The translations under genes and the position numbers were made by a program. The notes under the pieces are model-generated. The model was not told the DNA's origin. It made no database searches and saw nothing but the letters and a program-made list of their open reading frames with translations. Below are positions 2,083-61,304 of a DNA stretch of 64,000 bases, one piece after another (position 1 is the first letter of the stretch; every line of letters starts with the position of its first letter). The stretch is from a phage: sequence record PZ540767.1; one strand, written 5' to 3'.

Positions 2083-3687
2083 ATGAGTAATATTTTTGAC
2101 GTTGAACAGCCAAAGAAAACGGTAATAGATTGGCTAAACGGGGTGTCTTATGCAGAAGATCCTACGTATAAGCCGAGTCTGTTTGCTTTGCAGTTCGTTA
2201 ACTTTATCAAGCTGGTCAATGGTGGTCAGGGCGAGGAGCATAAGACTCCGGTGCTTCACTACAAAATGCTGGACACTGTTGTATCGGGTGATCGGCGTAT
2301 TGCTAATATGGTACACCGTGGTGCTGCTAAAACTACTGTGATGGCTGAATACCTATTCTTGTACTTAGGTGTGTTTGGTAGTCTGCCTGAGTTCGGACGT
2401 ATTGAACTGGCCCTGTATGTTTCTGACTCCGTGGATAACGGTGTGAAGAACATGCGTAAGAACTTAGAATTCCGTTGGGAAAACTCAGAATTCCTGAAGC
2501 GAATGATCCCTAAAGCCAAGTTTACGGATATTCGTTGGGAGTTTACCAACCTGGAAGGTCAAACCACAGTAATCAAAGGCTATGGTGCTAAGACGGGTGT
2601 TCGTGGTACGAAAGAGATGGGTAAACGTCCTAAGCTGGCGATCCTTGATGACCTGGTATCGGATGAGGATGCACGTTCACCTACCATCATTGCTGCTATC
2701 GAAGATACGGTATACAAGGCAGTAGAGTACGCATTGCACCCATCCAATAACATGATGATCTGGTCTGGTACTCCCTTTAACGCAGGTGACCCCCTGTATA
2801 AAGCAGTAGAGTCTGGAGCATGGACTGTCAACGTCTACCCAGTGTGTGAGATGTTCCCCTGTGAAGAATCAGAGTTCAGGGGCAGCTGGCCTGATCGTTT
2901 TGATTATCGTTATGTCAAACAGCAGTATGAGAAAGCATTACTGGGTGGCAAGATTGCCATGTTTAACCAGGAACTGATGCTTAAGATCATGTCTGATGAA
3001 GATCGCCTGATCGCTGATGGGGATATTCGTTACTACTCTCGTGCTGCCCTGTTGAAGAACAAGAGCAACTACAACTTCTACATCACCACTGACTTTGCCA
3101 CCAGTGACAAGCAGTCTGCTGACTTCTCTGTCATCTCTGTGTGGGCACTGAACAATAATGGTGACTGGTTCTACGTGGACGGTATCTGTGAACGCCAGCA
3201 CATGGGGCAAAATATCAGAGACTTGTTCCGTCTGGTTTCTCAGTACAACCCGCAGGAAGTTGGTATTGAAGTTACTGGTCAGCAATCTGGTTTCATTCCA
3301 TGGATTATTGAACAGCAGATCGATAAGAACGTATTCTTTAATCTGGCTTCCAGTAACAACTCAAGCCAGCCTGGTATTCGTCCTACCACTGATAAGTTAC
3401 AACGCTTTAACGTAGTGGTGCCCTGGTTTAAAGCTGGGAAGATGTATTTCCCTTCAGAGCTGAGAACCAGTAAAGCAATGATCGAGATGATGGAAGAACT
3501 TCGCCTTGCTTCATTGGGTGGTTTCAAATCCAAACACGATGATGCCATCGATACCATTTCTCAGCTGGCACTGTTGAAAACCTTTAAGCCAGGAACAGCT
3601 GCACCTGTATACTACAACGAAGAGAAAGACGTGTGGTACGAGCCAGACGTTGAAGTAGATACTCGACTCAGTAGCTATCTGGTTTAA
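2083..3687 (+). CDS. terL: terminase large subunit
   Basis: 534 aa; P-loop-like HRGAAKTT and ILDDLVSDEDA ATPase motifs in N-terminal half, acidic nuclease-type residues in C-terminal half; GGAGAAAGG RBS. Confidence 0.85.
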   Translation: MSNIFDVEQPKKTVIDWLNGVSYAEDPTYKPSLFALQFVNFIKLVNGGQGEEHKTPVLHYKMLDTVVSGDRRIANMVHRGAAKTTVMAEYLFLYLGVFGSLPEFGRIELALYVSDSVDNGVKNMRKNLEFRWENSEFLKRMIPKAKFTDIRWEFTNLEGQTTVIKGYGAKTGVRGTKEMGKRPKLAILDDLVSDEDARSPTIIAAIEDTVYKAVEYALHPSNNMMIWSGTPFNAGDPLYKAVESGAWTVNVYPVCEMFPCEESEFRGSWPDRFDYRYVKQQYEKALLGGKIAMFNQELMLKIMSDEDRLIADGDIRYYSRAALLKNKSNYNFYITTDFATSDKQSADFSVISVWALNNNGDWFYVDGICERQHMGQNIRDLFRLVSQYNPQEVGIEVTGQQSGFIPWIIEQQIDKNVFFNLASSNNSSQPGIRPTTDKLQRFNVVVPWFKAGKMYFPSELRTSKAMIEMMEELRLASLGGFKSKHDDAIDTISQLALLKTFKPGTAAPVYYNEEKDVWYEPDVEVDTRLSSYLV

Positions 3688-3696
3688 GGATCCTGT

Positions 3697-4578
3697 ATGA
3701 AACTGAAATTATCAGATGTGTTAGAGAACCTGGCAGCGGGTGAGTTATCTCACCTCTCCTTGTTTGAGAATGGGGCGGATATCCCATTTGAAACTTTTAA
3801 TAAACGACTGTTGCCCATTATCAATGCTGGTTTAACTGATATCCATATGCGTTTCTTTGTGAAACAGAAAGAGGTATGGCTCAAGCATTGTTGTGGTGAT
3901 ACTAAACTGGTACTGGATAGAAAGAATGCAGCAAGTGCTCACAGACTTCGTGGCAATGCTTTTATTCAGGATTGTGATGATCCCTTTAAGGATGATGTGG
4001 TAGAGATCCTCTCTATCTATAACCGGGATGGGCAACAATACCCGCTGAACATGGACACAGACCACACCCAGCCGAGAGGCTGTGGGTGTGGGCGTGGACA
4101 TGGATGCAACTGTACACCACCAAACTCATGGGCACGATATGACAGCACATTGGACTACCCGGCAACCATCACCACCAGAACCCCCTATGGCAGCTATGGT
4201 AGTTGTGGGCCTGGCTTGCCTGTGCTGTATACTCCTGCTGTTAATGTGATCAGACTGCCGGAGAATATGCCTTCTGGTTTCATGAAGGTATTCTATAAAG
4301 CTGCACCTGCTCGTATTCCTAAGCTGGAGGATAACGGGGTAACTACCTATGATCGTATCGATCTGGATTTACCCTTTACTTATCTGGATGCACTGGTTTA
4401 CTACATCTCATCCCGTCTGACTGCACCTACCAATGGTGGGCTGCAAGCAGGGACTAATGAGACAACCCAGTACTACAATAAGTATCTGTCTGCTTGTGCA
4501 GTGCTTACTGATCAAGGGGTGGATGTTTCTACTCAGGGATCTGGTTACAGCAGGTTTGCTAAGTCAGACTTCAGATAA
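3697..4578 (+). CDS. hypothetical protein with Cys/Gly/His-rich motif
   Basis: 293 aa; AAGGA RBS; contains HTQPRGCGCGRGHGCNC; followed by terminator. Confidence 0.6.
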   Translation: MKLKLSDVLENLAAGELSHLSLFENGADIPFETFNKRLLPIINAGLTDIHMRFFVKQKEVWLKHCCGDTKLVLDRKNAASAHRLRGNAFIQDCDDPFKDDVVEILSIYNRDGQQYPLNMDTDHTQPRGCGCGRGHGCNCTPPNSWARYDSTLDYPATITTRTPYGSYGSCGPGLPVLYTPAVNVIRLPENMPSGFMKVFYKAAPARIPKLEDNGVTTYDRIDLDLPFTYLDALVYYISSRLTAPTNGGLQAGTNETTQYYNKYLSACAVLTDQGVDVSTQGSGYSRFAKSDFR

Positions 4579-4583
4579 AAATA

Positions 4584-4610
4584 AAGCCCCTTAACCGGGG
4601 CTTTTCTTTA
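4584..4610. terminator. rho-independent terminator, likely bidirectional
   Basis: AGCCCC-TTAACC-GGGGCT hairpin followed by TTTCTTT on plus and preceded by A-run; lies between convergent genes 3697..4578 and 4608..5027. Confidence 0.7.
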
Positions 4611-5027
4611 GTACACCATATCAGGAGTATATTCCAGGAACCGTGTGACAATGGTTCGTTTAGTGTACGTCTTGCCCTTCATATTAGCCAAAGCCTCCTG
4701 CAAAGCCTGGCTTTCTAACTCGGACACTTTAATGTAGTTGGGGGTTTCCTTTTCCCGAGGGAACTCATGTTCCACCTTGTGCCCACTAATTACACCATTA
4801 GCTTCTACATAAAGTGAGACAGCGATGCACCCATTACCTTTCTTAAGTGCTTCAATAACAAGAGCACTAGGGTTACGTTTGGTAAAAGGATCTGCAAACT
4901 CATGGGCTAAGAATTGATCAGCTTTTTGCAGCATGTGGTGCATATCAGCAGATTCAGCCATCACTGCTTGGGCAGCATTGAGAATTCGTTCACGAACAGG
5001 CCCATCATTCATTTCTGTAATTTTCAT
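4608..5027 (-). CDS. hypothetical protein (139 aa)
   Basis: ATG at 5027 overlaps the stop of the upstream gene (ATGA); last gene of a three-gene minus-strand operon. Confidence 0.55.
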   Translation of the reverse strand: MKITEMNDGPVRERILNAAQAVMAESADMHHMLQKADQFLAHEFADPFTKRNPSALVIEALKKGNGCIAVSLYVEANGVISGHKVEHEFPREKETPNYIKVSELESQALQEALANMKGKTYTKRTIVTRFLEYTPDMVY

Positions 5028-5798: not shown

Positions 5799-5875
5799 TG
5801 GCTGGAGCATCTGGATTCGAACCAGAGAATGTCGGTATCAAAGACCGATGCCTTAACCTACTTGGCTATGCTCCA
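5799..5875 (-). tRNA. tRNA-Gln (anticodon TTG)
   Basis: Cloverleaf folded by eye on reverse complement: acceptor TGGAGCA/TGCTCCA, anticodon loop CTTTGAT, T-loop TTCGAAT, encoded CCA. Confidence 0.7.
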
Positions 5876-5878
5876 ATT

Positions 5879-5968
5879 TGGTGGAAGGTGAAGGATTCGA
5901 ACCTTCGGGCGCATCTCTGCACCTCCTGATTTCAAGTCAGGTACAATCGGCCTCTCTGACAACCTTCC
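5879..5968 (-). tRNA. tRNA-Ser (anticodon TGA), long variable arm
   Basis: Acceptor GGAAGGT/ACCTTCC, anticodon stem CCTGA/TCAGG with loop CTTGAAA, long variable arm, T-loop TTCGAAT, encoded CCA. Confidence 0.7.
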
Positions 5969-5974
5969 TAAATT

Positions 5975-6061
5975 TGGTGGGGGAAGATGGAGTTGAACCA
6001 CCCGAGCTTCTTAGGCAACAGATTTACAGTCTGTCCCGCTACCTCTACGGTCTATTCCCCC
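5975..6061 (-). tRNA. tRNA-Tyr (anticodon GTA), long variable arm
   Basis: Acceptor GGGGGAA/TTCCCCC, anticodon stem ACAGA/TCTGT with loop CTGTAAA, T-loop TTCAACT, encoded CCA. Confidence 0.6.
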
Positions 6062-6066
6062 GAATT

Positions 6067-6143
6067 TGGTCACCACGTAAGGATTCGAACCTTAGACACC
6101 TTGCTCCCAAAGCAAGTGCTCTACCAGACTGAGCTACGCAGTG
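6067..6143 (-). tRNA. tRNA-Pro (anticodon TGG)
   Basis: D-arm TAGCTCAGTCTGGTAGAGC, anticodon stem CTTGC/GCAAG with loop TTTGGGA, T-loop TTCGAAT, encoded CCA. Confidence 0.7.
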
Positions 6144-6209
6144 TAATTAGCCCTCTACTGTCGCCATCCAGTAATCCAGTTGGAATCGAACCAACACAGA
6201 GGGGTTATT

Positions 6210-6284
6210 TGGCGATGGGACTGGGACTCGAACCCAGCTGTCATAGATTAACAGTCTACCGCTTCACCGTTTAGCTATCCCATC
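6210..6284 (-). tRNA. tRNA-Asn (anticodon GTT)
   Basis: Acceptor GATGGGA/TCCCATC, anticodon loop CTGTTAA, T-arm CTGGG-TTCGAGT-CCCAG, encoded CCA. Confidence 0.6.
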
Positions 6285-59060: not shown

Positions 59061-60242
59061 CTATACAAGCCCTTCCATTGTAAAGTGAACCACTTTGCCA
59101 AATTTTGGTACAAAGTTGGGGTTATCATAAACGAACCAGATTACAGGACGTTTAGGATCTACCAGATTGTGCTGGCTGAGGTAACCATCAGTCAGGATAA
59201 ACATCCCCAGTGATGCTTTATCACGGGCGAAGTCTTCGATGGTACTGTCGATGCAAGTACCGCCACCACCACTGAATTTAACATTGAGCAGATCACGTAC
59301 TGTACATATACGAGAGATATCCTTGATATCAGTATCAAACTGATACAGCTTTATCTCGTCTGGTTTAAACAGTTTCAGTACCTGATAAACACCACCTAAG
59401 AAGATGGTGAACTCTTTCTTGCCAATGGAACCAGATACGTCAATAGCCCATGAAATACGTCCCAGGGACTTACCACGGCGTTCTGGAGCAGTGATATCGT
59501 GTACCAGCATACGACGACGAAGACGTGACCATGTACGGCCAGGCTTACGTGTGACCTTCTCACAGAAGATCTTCAGATAGTGCTGCCAAGGAATTGGAGG
59601 ATTCAGGAGATCCTCAATACGGCGAGCCATATCCTTAGTACCACGCCCAAACTGTTTACCAGTCTGGTTTGCCTCAGCCATTTCAGCTGCCATGTTAGCA
59701 CCCAGTAAGATGCTATCAATTTGCTGCTTCTGGCTATCCTGTTCTTCTTGGGTCAGGGACTGTTTATTGAAATCAGGCATAGGGTTTTTACCCTTGTGAG
59801 TGCCTGGTTTCTTAGCCTCTTCCTGTTGAAGAATCCGGTATACCTGCATGGTGGTCATACCATCAAAGCGGGAGTCTACCAATACCTTAATAGTTGTAGG
59901 CATTGGCATTCCAGACTTTTTCAATTCCAGGTTGATTACATAGTCACCAGCCTGGTTCCACAGATCTTCATCCAGATCGGCAGGGAAAGTAGTGCAGTGT
60001 TCATGCACAATATGCCCAACTTCATGAGCCACCACAAAAGGGTGTTCAGCAGGTTTGAGCATCTCCATGAATTTCTGGTTGTAATACACGGTTAAAGAAT
60101 CCGTGTAAGCAGAATCACAAGGGTGCCCAGCGGGCACTTCCTTATGTTTTAATCTGAGGATCATTGAAGCCCAGAACACATACTTCTCATCCAAAGCCAG
60201 GGTAGTAAAGGCTTTGTCGAGGATCTTCTCAAGTGGTGACAT
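59061..60242 (-). CDS. metallopeptidase-motif protein with probable VWA-like C-terminal domain
   Basis: 393 aa; HExxH-type motif AHEVGHIVHEH in N-terminal half; adjacent to AAA+ ATPase; AAGGAA RBS. Confidence 0.5.
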   Translation of the reverse strand: MSPLEKILDKAFTTLALDEKYVFWASMILRLKHKEVPAGHPCDSAYTDSLTVYYNQKFMEMLKPAEHPFVVAHEVGHIVHEHCTTFPADLDEDLWNQAGDYVINLELKKSGMPMPTTIKVLVDSRFDGMTTMQVYRILQQEEAKKPGTHKGKNPMPDFNKQSLTQEEQDSQKQQIDSILLGANMAAEMAEANQTGKQFGRGTKDMARRIEDLLNPPIPWQHYLKIFCEKVTRKPGRTWSRLRRRMLVHDITAPERRGKSLGRISWAIDVSGSIGKKEFTIFLGGVYQVLKLFKPDEIKLYQFDTDIKDISRICTVRDLLNVKFSGGGGTCIDSTIEDFARDKASLGMFILTDGYLSQHNLVDPKRPVIWFVYDNPNFVPKFGKVVHFTMEGLV

Positions 60243-60251
60243 TGTAATTCC

Positions 60252-61304
60252 TTAGAAAAGTTCGTCAGCGTGGCGAGTACACCAGTTGCTTACCTCAGCA
60301 TTACTGCCGAGTTTAGGGTTACGTGCAATGATGCTGCGCATTGAGATTACCTGGTAGGACGCTGGCATACGCTCAATGAAGGTCATTGCTTTAGCAATGT
60401 TATCTTCAGCTACACCACGAGCCAGTACACCAGTCAGCGCATACATCCAGGATGGTTCATTAGTAGGGATACGAGCACCTTCAGGATCTTTGAGGATCTG
60501 TTCCATAGTTACTACTTTAGAGAAGTAGGTAACGAAGGTACGGAAGCTACGTCCAGTGGCTACACCTACAGTGCCGTCGATCATCGGTTCCCAGCCTTCA
60601 ATAGATTCCAGCGGGGTGATGAGCTTGGACAGCATAGACCAGGTACGAGCACACGCATGGGTATACTCGTTGGCATCCGGGTTGAATTTGTTGAATGCAT
60701 CTGGCTCGTAGTTGAGGAATGCCACAATACGAGGATCCAGAGTTGCAGTGAACAGTTTCAGCCAGTACTTCAGGTTTTCTTTGATGGTCAGGTTGACCAC
60801 ACGAGAACCCAGAGCAGTACCCAGAGAGGATGCAATTGCACCATCATCTTCACGGTTACCAGCAGCCATGATCCACATACGTTTGTGTACGTGTTTCTGG
60901 CCTACTTTCTTGTCCAGAATGAACTTGTAGCTTGCAGCTTTGGTGTCGTCAGCAGCAGAGGTCAGTTCGTCCAGCAGTACCAGGAAACCAGCGTACTGCT
61001 TGCCAGTTTTAGGGTTAACCGGGATAGGATCACCTTCCAGCGGGATTTCATCCAGAGGGATGTATTTACCCTTGGTTTTGTCATCGTTGAAGCCCAGTAC
61101 GCCATTCATGTCTACTGGTTCCATACCAGCCAAACGCAGGTCGATCAGCAGCAGGTTGTAAGTATCAGCTACTTCCTGCGCAATAGAGGATTTACCGAAG
61201 CCAGGAGCACCATACAGCATTGGTACAAGACCCTGCTTCATGATGTGGGCTACGGTAGTAGCAGCTTTGGAAATGTCGAGCGGAGTTGTCAGAGTCGTTG
61301 CCAT
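60252..61304 (-). CDS. AAA+ ATPase, MoxR-like
   Basis: 350 aa; Walker A GAPGFGKS, Walker B-like LLLIDL and LVLLDEL segments. Confidence 0.65.
   Translation of the reverse strand: MATTLTTPLDISKAATTVAHIMKQGLVPMLYGAPGFGKSSIAQEVADTYNLLLIDLRLAGMEPVDMNGVLGFNDDKTKGKYIPLDEIPLEGDPIPVNPKTGKQYAGFLVLLDELTSAADDTKAASYKFILDKKVGQKHVHKRMWIMAAGNREDDGAIASSLGTALGSRVVNLTIKENLKYWLKLFTATLDPRIVAFLNYEPDAFNKFNPDANEYTHACARTWSMLSKLITPLESIEGWEPMIDGTVGVATGRSFRTFVTYFSKVVTMEQILKDPEGARIPTNEPSWMYALTGVLARGVAEDNIAKAMTFIERMPASYQVISMRSIIARNPKLGSNAEVSNWCTRHADELF

Follow-up and report, generated by a model that had tools for sequence, protein, structure and literature searches.

We begin by considering a question that two adjacent phage genes raise: what does an AAA+ ATPase do together with a protein that carries both a peptidase motif and a VWA domain? 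The genes occupy positions 59,061 to 61,304 of a 64,000-nucleotide (nt) stretch of phage DNA (sequence record PZ540767.1), the whole of which we call the window. In the initial annotation they were taken for a MoxR-like ATPase paired with a metallopeptidase-motif, VWA-like protein of unclear function. We find that the two proteins are orthologues of gp24 and gp25 of phage N4. The answer that we favor, and consider reasonably probable, is that a hexameric ring of the MoxR/NorQ type would drive a VWA-peptidase adaptor, by which a client protein would be remodelled, and probably cleaved, during the replication phase.

The pair and its N4 orthologues

In BLASTP the ATPase aligns with N4 gp24 at 34% identity (E 4e-70, residues 18-341) and its partner with N4 gp25 at 26% identity (E 3e-31, residues 4-388). 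Besides this homology, the window pair has in common with the N4 genes the ATPase-first order, the strand, the phage family, the position between upstream RNA polymerase II (RNAPII) genes and the replication genes, and a virion RNA polymerase encoded in the same genome; by these marks it is a member of the gp24/gp25 core-gene pair. In the N4 record (NC_008720) the two genes are consecutive on one strand and carry the notes "similar to S. coel. protein 1" and "protein 2". The two phages differ in the spacer between the genes, which is 167 nt in N4 and 9 nt here, and in what follows the pair: in N4 a dCTP deaminase gene (gp26) comes next and the helicase gene lies about 9 kb downstream, whereas in the window phage a Dda-like helicase gene comes directly after.

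How much of this was known? Comparative genomics lists gp24 ("unknown" or putative AAA ATPase) and gp25 (vWFA domain) as two of the 14 core genes of N4-like phages, and as middle transcripts of unknown function (PMC4193335; PMC2784036). Since both the pair and its domains stand in that literature, the gp24/gp25 pair was already known, and the window holds an ordinary, strongly constrained copy of it with nothing unusual about it. What is added here are the linkage counts, the occurrence in jumbo phages, plasmids and actinomycetes, a third gene of about 285 amino acids (aa), and the recognition that the HNH label borne by many gp25 homologues is unsupported.

Positions 59061-61304 contain exactly two open reading frames (ORFs), both on the minus strand, which are arranged as follows.

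60252..61304, minus strand: gp24-like AAA+ ATPase gene, 350 aa, ATG start
60243..60254, minus strand: ATPase stop codon and 9-nt spacer, TAAGGAATTACA, then ATG; AGGA overlaps the stop codon
59061..60242, minus strand: gp25-like gene encoding a zincin-type peptidase domain, a linker and a VWA domain, 393 aa, ATG start

The AAA+ ATPase with the motif GAPGFGKS, and the 393-aa protein with AHEVGHIVHEH, are found where the initial annotation had placed them, at residues 32-39 and 72-82 of their respective products. The VWA-like character that it gave to the second protein likewise holds, through a DUF2201 match, fold searches and a complete MIDAS, the adhesion site that depends on a metal ion. The gap between the genes, given there as 10 nt, is in fact 9 nt (GGAATTACA, 60243-60251). 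The AGGA that overlaps the ATPase stop codon is the ribosome-binding site for the partner, and the 9-nt spacing is consistent with co-translation of the two proteins. The annotated ATPase of the related phage GADU21 (9253-10221 of the fetched locus) is 28 codons shorter than the window ORF at 60252-61304; the longer start is backed by N-terminal residues that homologues conserve and by a helix at residues 11-23 that is modelled with confidence. Compared with the 97%-identical phage Tribble_ER49, the ATPase gene has a ratio of nonsynonymous to synonymous substitution rates (dN/dS) of 0.058 and the partner gene one of 0.027, and both genes are under purifying selection.

Domains and conserved residues

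We turn our attention to the two proteins themselves. The features on which the assignments depend are listed here, with those of the ATPase first; strands and helices are those of the AlphaFold2 models.

61188..61211, minus strand: Walker A/P-loop GAPGFGKS, residues 32-39, after strand 27-31; K38 and S39 invariant in 35 homologues
60966..60971, minus strand: Walker B acidic pair D112-E113 (LLDE, residues 110-113), invariant, at the end of strand 106-112
60855..60857, minus strand: sensor-1 asparagine N150 (AAGN), invariant, at the end of strand 143-149
60801..60803, minus strand: candidate arginine finger R168, invariant, just before strand 169-175, the fifth core strand
59502..60194, minus strand: DUF2201_N putative metallopeptidase domain, residues 17-247, Pfam E 2.5e-31
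59997..60026, minus strand: HEVGHIVHEH, residues 73-82, the HExxH zinc/catalytic motif plus H82; helix 64-79
59931..59960, minus strand: WNQAGDYVIN, residues 95-104, the helix after the active-site helix; A98, D100 and N104 invariant, N96 and I103 conserved in at least 90%
59085..59450, minus strand: VWA-like domain (DUF2201), residues 265-386, Pfam E 5e-17
59427..59441, minus strand: MIDAS motif DVSGS, D268-S272, aligning with DGSGS of the integrin I-domain; D268, S270, G271 and S272 invariant
59256..59258, minus strand: MIDAS threonine T329 (GGGGT), invariant
59187..59189, minus strand: MIDAS aspartate D352 (TDG), invariant, at the end of strand 344-351

The first protein has the Walker A and B motifs, the sensor-1 residue, R168 and the strand order expected of an AAA+ ATPase. 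Across 35 homologues of 34-76% identity, K38, S39, D112, E113, N150, R168 and R220 are invariant, and R168 occupies the site that corresponds to the arginine finger position given for MoxR proteins by Kaur et al. (PMC7159879), which makes it the candidate finger. The whole protein matches the PHROG family 1297 "ATPase" (phrog_1297, E 1.4e-96). Its AlphaFold2 model is confident (predicted local distance difference test score, pLDDT, 92.4; predicted template-modelling score, pTM, 0.85) and contains extra strands between β2 and β3 and before β4, which may be the helix-2 and pre-sensor-1 inserts of AAA+ clade 7. The closest structures to this model are modules of the MoxR/dynein/midasin type, and the sequence profile matches the AAA modules of Midasin (E 1.4e-11). 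The family is a large one: a profile search collects 18,258 clusters at 50% identity with E <=1e-3, and 4,996 with E <=1e-30.

The partner is read by Pfam as DUF2201_N (109.8 bits, cutoff 23.2) followed by DUF2201 (62.6 bits, cutoff 26.4), and all 61 of its database homologues have the identical two-domain architecture. In the C-terminal domain, which has the Rossmann-like VWA fold, D268, S270, G271, S272, G327, T329 and D352 are invariant across 40 homologues of 22-63% identity, and together form a complete MIDAS motif (DxSxS...T...D). In the N-terminal domain of the same 40 homologues H77, H82, A98, D100 and N104 are invariant, with H73 and E74 conserved in at least 90%; in a further alignment (A4) H73, E74, H77 and H82 are all invariant. 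The HExxH helix follows strands 32-35, 45-47 and 51-54 of the model. A Peptidase_M48 match at residues 50-84 just passes its cutoff (20.7 bits vs 20.3), and a profile of the first 150 residues matches MJ1213, a minigluzincin (E 6.4e-5), and BepA, an M48 protease (E about 0.05), in alignments that span about 45 residues and cover the HExxH helix and the preceding strand. H82 and D100 are the candidate third zinc ligands. The pLDDT of the partner model is 89 and its pTM 0.61, so the relative arrangement of the two domains is uncertain.

Other identities for the pair were tried and set aside. PADLOC returns only P-loop-level matches for the ATPase (IetA and DolB; E about 1e-3 over about 30 residues) and no match for the partner, and an NCBIfam scan of the pair gives similar P-loop noise only; membership in a defence system is therefore rejected. 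A cobaltochelatase of the CobS/CobT kind finds no support in Pfam or NCBIfam. The pair is of the MoxR-VWA kind, with the Pfam-catalogued DUF2201 (zincin-VWA) architecture.

Gene linkage and genomic neighbourhood

The next question is "are the two genes kept together wherever they occur?" To answer it, we searched viral and genomic loci with seeds from an 8-sequence alignment. From IMG/VR 80 loci were fetched and scanned with our own hidden Markov models, and 73 of them have at least 1.7 kb of upstream flank. In every one of these 73 the ATPase gene shares the strand of the partner gene and lies upstream of it, at a distance of between 5 nt and 5.4 kb (median 875 nt). Unrelated inserted genes often occupy the gap. 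In bacterial genome assemblies the ATPase gene is directly upstream on the same strand in 49 of 52 loci. Some of these loci are on chromosomes of Catenulispora, Catellatospora, Salinispora, Lentzea and Phytohabitans; others come from Chloroflexi, Deinococcales and Proteobacteria. Adjacency of AAA+ and VWA genes is the defining signature of MoxR systems (PMC7159879), and the window ATPase has such an adjacent VWA-partner gene. The order kept at 22-35% identity, together with this adjacency rule, is our main argument that the two proteins act jointly.

By tblastn, 569 phage records contain the partner and 816 the ATPase; most are Schitoviridae. Matches outside N4-like phages include those in the jumbo phages PA5oct, SCTP-2, Atu_ph07, Sharanji and phage G, and in Vequintavirinae. 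In Atu_ph07 the ATPase gene is directly upstream of the partner gene, and in PA5oct four genes, one of them a homing endonuclease, stand between the two. The partner is also found in 59 plasmid records, among them conjugative megaplasmids of Burkholderia, Cupriavidus and Ralstonia. On B. gladioli pls1 (NZ_CP022007 190382-194483; MOBH, MPF_T) and on the Rhodovastum plasmid RHOApb it lies downstream of a full-length gp24-like ATPase, the plasmid ATPase being 24% identical over 313 aa (E 2e-26), and the module has DnaN-like, DUF3991/toprim and type IV secretion system (T4SS) genes as neighbours. In Catenulispora the pair is a stand-alone cassette amid unrelated genes. The presence of such a pair on actinomycete chromosomes fits the old "similar to S. 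coel." notes of the N4 record.

Several loci show peculiarities of their own. In the actinomycete loci (L109-L144; for example L110, 4457-7434) the ATPase matches only profile positions of about 5-285, and the larger DUF2201 protein, at 610 aa, begins with an extra stretch of some 220 aa. NZ_CP110465.1, filed as an A. baumannii "plasmid" of 75,126 bp, encodes a gp25 homologue that is 32% identical along 99% of the query, and no other plasmid match comes near this. The length of the record is usual for an N4-like phage, and the entry may really be a phage genome. Selfish elements target the ATPase/DUF2201 locus: a 695-aa ORF with Intein_splicing and HNH_3 domains lies directly upstream of a DUF2201 gene (locus L007, 3857-5944), an HNH endonuclease splits the ATPase gene of phage Pollock, the PA5oct homing endonuclease gene between the pair is at 3434-4930 of locus L003, and in ATPase homologues of about 680 aa (P0115, P0146) the profile match is split in two.

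Outside the N4-like group a third gene appears. At 22 viral loci an ORF of about 283-290 aa lies in the gap between the ATPase and partner genes (for example locus L048, 7136-8008), and homologues stand at the equivalent position on two plasmids as "hypothetical" proteins of 299 and 309 aa (L010, 6064-6990; L011, 6033-6929). Counting copies before the ATPase gene or after the partner gene, it is present at 33 viral loci (within L046-L090) and 9 genomic loci (within L094-L104). It has no match in Pfam or PHROG, and no detectable homologue in the window, N4 or DSS3phi2. N4-type RNAPII genes lie near 28 of the viral loci and the third gene at 33, with no viral locus having both; at one locus from a metagenome-assembled genome (L117) the two occur together. 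Because the third gene is absent from every viral locus with an RNAPII gene nearby, the module is one of two genes in N4-like phages and of three elsewhere. Its product, of about 283-310 aa, may be a third subunit or a client of the module.

As for the window phage, the 2.4-kb region around the pair matches 12 Klebsiella phage records at 95-97% identity (P19-618, HS106, Tribble_ER49, P184, FBKp27, GADU21 and others); to a thirteenth record, Halo_KS_7, the identity is 88.7%. GADU21 is classified in Schitoviridae, Efbeekayvirus. The window encodes a 3560-aa virion RNA polymerase (phrog_2206, E 0) and, among other N4-like hallmarks, rIIA-like and rIIB-like proteins, the Dda-like helicase and a DNA polymerase; it is from an N4-like Klebsiella phage of Schitoviridae, Efbeekayvirus. 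In close relatives the order is RNAPII subunits, small genes, ATPase, partner, helicase, rIIA, rIIB and DNA polymerase. A 79-aa ORF upstream of the ATPase gene ends 1 nt short of its start codon, and the helicase gene starts 24 nt past the partner stop codon; with such small gaps on both sides, the pair is embedded in a tight co-directional gene block.

A scan of 56-64 kb for sigma-70 promoters and terminators found fewer promoter-like sites than shuffled sequence; N4 middle promoters are of another type. The terminator scan flagged, on both strands at 60121-60139, a GC-rich hairpin (GTGCCC-GCT-GGGCAC) whose 6-bp stem pairs perfectly and whose loop has 3 nt. The promoters of the N4 virion RNA polymerase resemble small hairpins of this shape. 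The present one falls within the partner gene, in the codons for VPAGHPC, and is probably a coding coincidence. Elsewhere in the window, at 5799-6284 on the minus strand, five tRNA genes lie clustered (Gln-TTG, Ser-TGA, Tyr-GTA, Pro-TGG, Asn-GTT).

A working model and its alternatives

How might the two proteins work together? In the model that we favor, the gp24-like protein belongs, as an active AAA+ ATPase, to the MoxR/CbbQ/NorQ/Midasin/dynein structural group and most likely forms a hexameric ring, and the gp25-like protein is its dedicated partner, which would contact the ring physically. A metal bound at the MIDAS of the partner would clamp an acidic residue of the client, while the N-terminal domain would be a zinc peptidase of the M48/minigluzincin kind with an intact HExxH. 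If the NorQ-NorD and CbbQ-CbbO pairs are a guide, a single partner would dock on the ring, and ATP hydrolysis would pull or twist it so that the client held by the MIDAS is remodelled. In the NorQ system the hexamer binds one NorD (NorQ6:NorD1), the VWA domain inserts a finger into the pore of the ring, the NorD linker is twisted by ATP hydrolysis so as to remodel the target, and the NorD MIDAS is required for target engagement while being dispensable for NorQ binding (PMC9976466; PMC13036017). The client, or the partner itself, would probably also be cleaved, a step that we infer entirely, because the peptidase residues are conserved as strictly as those of the MIDAS. The machine would act before or during genome replication, given that the genes lie in a co-directional block of middle genes with the replication genes and given the N4 literature (PMC4193335).

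The known systems resemble this model in part. At the N-terminus NorD and CbbO have a target-binding domain and not a zincin peptidase, and the clients of NorQ/NorD and CbbQ/CbbO are known (nitric oxide reductase, cNOR, and Rubisco, respectively) and are not cleaved. The phage ATPase, unlike NorQ and CbbQ, ends in some 130 aa of additional helical sequence and misses the Pfam AAA_5 cutoff. Midasin/Rea1 is one giant eukaryotic polypeptide of six fused AAA modules that serves ribosome biogenesis and has no peptidase. The M48 peptidases (BepA and HtpX type) and the minigluzincins (MJ1213 projannalysin) share with the partner a β-strand and the HExxH active-site helix; only these 45 or so residues align. 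To judge from its additional invariants H82, D100 and N104, the metal site of the partner may well be arranged differently. We know of no fusion of an M48 peptidase or a minigluzincin to a VWA domain. Among viruses, a MoxR-VWA chaperone (p618/p892) is said to have been described by Scheele in 2011 in Acidianus two-tailed virus (ATV). Compared by description, ATV p618 (MoxR-type) and p892 (VWA), and the AAA/vWA-MIDAS pairs that haloarchaeal siphoviruses have within their replication/accessory module, are virus-encoded AAA+/VWA pairs like the present one. The ATV pair differs in acting on tail development outside the cell, and the VWA partners of ATV and the haloviruses are larger (711-892 aa), with no zincin domain reported.

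Some results weigh against the favored model. The known MoxR-VWA systems are remodellers and not proteases, and our literature search found no experiment on gp24/gp25 or on any DUF2201/COG3864 protein. In the CRISPRi-ART, HIDEN-SEQ and phage transposon-sequencing papers, a text search for N4-like and Schitoviridae terms gave no match, and the transposon study that names gp24/gp25 concerns PhiKZ. In one partner homologue (P0012) H and E of the HExxH motif have been lost. In KpS8 an ATPase-annotated gene lies about 5 kb away on the opposite strand. Of the metallopeptidase claim of the initial annotation, the motif and profile level stands, where the zincin assignment is good; the whole-domain fold is not among the matches listed by the two fold searches of the full-length model, whose top 50-60 matches are VWA domains only. 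No peptidase is listed there because VWA matches fill the output, and the proposed peptidase fold thus draws on the profile matches of about 45 residues. Likewise, MoxR-like is a name that the adjacent VWA gene, the structure and transitive homology support, while the phage ATPase itself stays below the curated Pfam cutoffs (AAA_5 17.0 bits, cutoff 22; AAA 19 bits, cutoff 21.2). Its Catenulispora chromosomal homologue passes AAA_5 with 43.5 bits and a plasmid homologue does so barely, with 22.3 bits.

If not a remodelling protease, what else could the pair be? It could be a chaperone for metal-cofactor insertion in the style of NorQ/NorD, CoxD/CoxE, BchI/BchD or CobS/CobT, opening a phage or host metalloenzyme, for instance one of nucleotide metabolism, with the HExxH domain as a metal-binding or hand-off site instead of a protease. 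This is the role of the best-characterised MoxR-VWA pairs (PMC13036017; PMC9976466), the structural matches include NorQ, CbbQ and the VWA domain of NorD, and the N4 pair adjoins nucleotide-metabolism genes (dCTP deaminase gp26). The conserved glutamate of HExxH, however, is expected for hydrolysis and needless for mere metal binding, the Pfam and PDB matches are peptidases, and no metalloenzyme neighbour is conserved across N4-like phages, jumbo phages, plasmids and actinomycete chromosomes; we consider this explanation unlikely. Still less probable is a virion-assembly chaperone that, like ATV p618/p892, would help with the folding or loading of a structural component, for example the 3560-aa virion RNA polymerase. 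ATV provides the viral precedent, and all Schitoviridae have both the pair and the giant polymerase. The PA5oct ATPase coding sequence (EST35_0335; locus L003, 984-2099) carries the GenBank note "ESI-MS/MS", as do neighbouring "structural protein" coding sequences, and this note would mean that the ATPase was detected by mass spectrometry. Against such a role, the pair is found on conjugative plasmids (by T4SS, primase and DnaN-like genes) and on actinomycete chromosomes without virion genes nearby, and the N4 genes are middle, not late (PMC4193335); the virion-protein table that a text search of that paper brought up lists neither gp24 nor gp25. The occurrence of the module in phages, conjugative plasmids and chromosomes argues against both a virion-specific role and a single conserved metalloenzyme client, and leaves room for a role in the establishment of mobile DNA. 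The module would then be a general establishment machine, an AAA+-powered, MIDAS-targeted protease directed soon after entry at a specific host protein, which may be a defence or restriction factor or a protein that blocks the incoming DNA or the replisome. It would be common to N4-like phages, jumbo phages and conjugative plasmids, with a third subunit of about 285 aa in the versions outside the N4-like group. A functional precedent is ArdC of plasmid R388, a single-stranded DNA-binding protein with a metalloprotease domain that is needed in the recipient to pass a host barrier (PMC7213743). No sequence relationship of ArdC to the gp25-like protein was detected, however, the Pfam matches of the latter being DUF2201_N, DUF2201 and M48 only, and ArdC has no AAA+ or VWA partner. 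We hold this role, too, to be doubtful, on a par with metal insertion.

Two simpler explanations concern the genes rather than their client. The two could be mere neighbours with independent functions and no complex, as the spacers of 5 nt to 5.4 kb with their unrelated inserted genes would allow; set against the order and strand kept in 73/73 viral and 49/52 bacterial loci at such low identity, and against the adjacency that defines MoxR systems (PMC7159879), we regard this as very improbable. The 393-aa protein could also be the HNH endonuclease that the databases name. The label is on gp25 homologues of RefSeq N4 (NC_008720; locus L006, 6165-7307), P184, FBKp27 and many Vibrio and Pseudomonas phages, and it is the name of PHROG 1314; nothing else speaks for it. 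No Pfam HNH family matches the partner, even at E 0.1, DUF2201_N and DUF2201 account for its whole length, and the fold searches give VWA domains. Homing endonucleases and inteins do sit beside or inside the ATPase gene in some phages. We give an HNH identity practically no credence, and the label looks like a propagated misannotation.

What would the remodelling model, or one of its alternatives, mean for the phages? The interest is modest: the pair is universal in Schitoviridae, and nothing here will surprise a specialist. Yet gp24 and gp25 are two of the roughly 14 genes common to all N4-like phages and among the least understood of this core set, and many isolates intended for phage therapy of Klebsiella, Pseudomonas, Acinetobacter and E. 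coli are Schitoviridae. Should the establishment role turn out to be true, the module would be a new class of counter-defence or takeover device, ArdC-like in purpose. With an ATPase family of about 18,000 clusters and so wide a range of elements, one solved member would annotate many genes now called "hypothetical" or "HNH endonuclease". It would also reveal whether a MoxR-VWA motor can couple to proteolysis.

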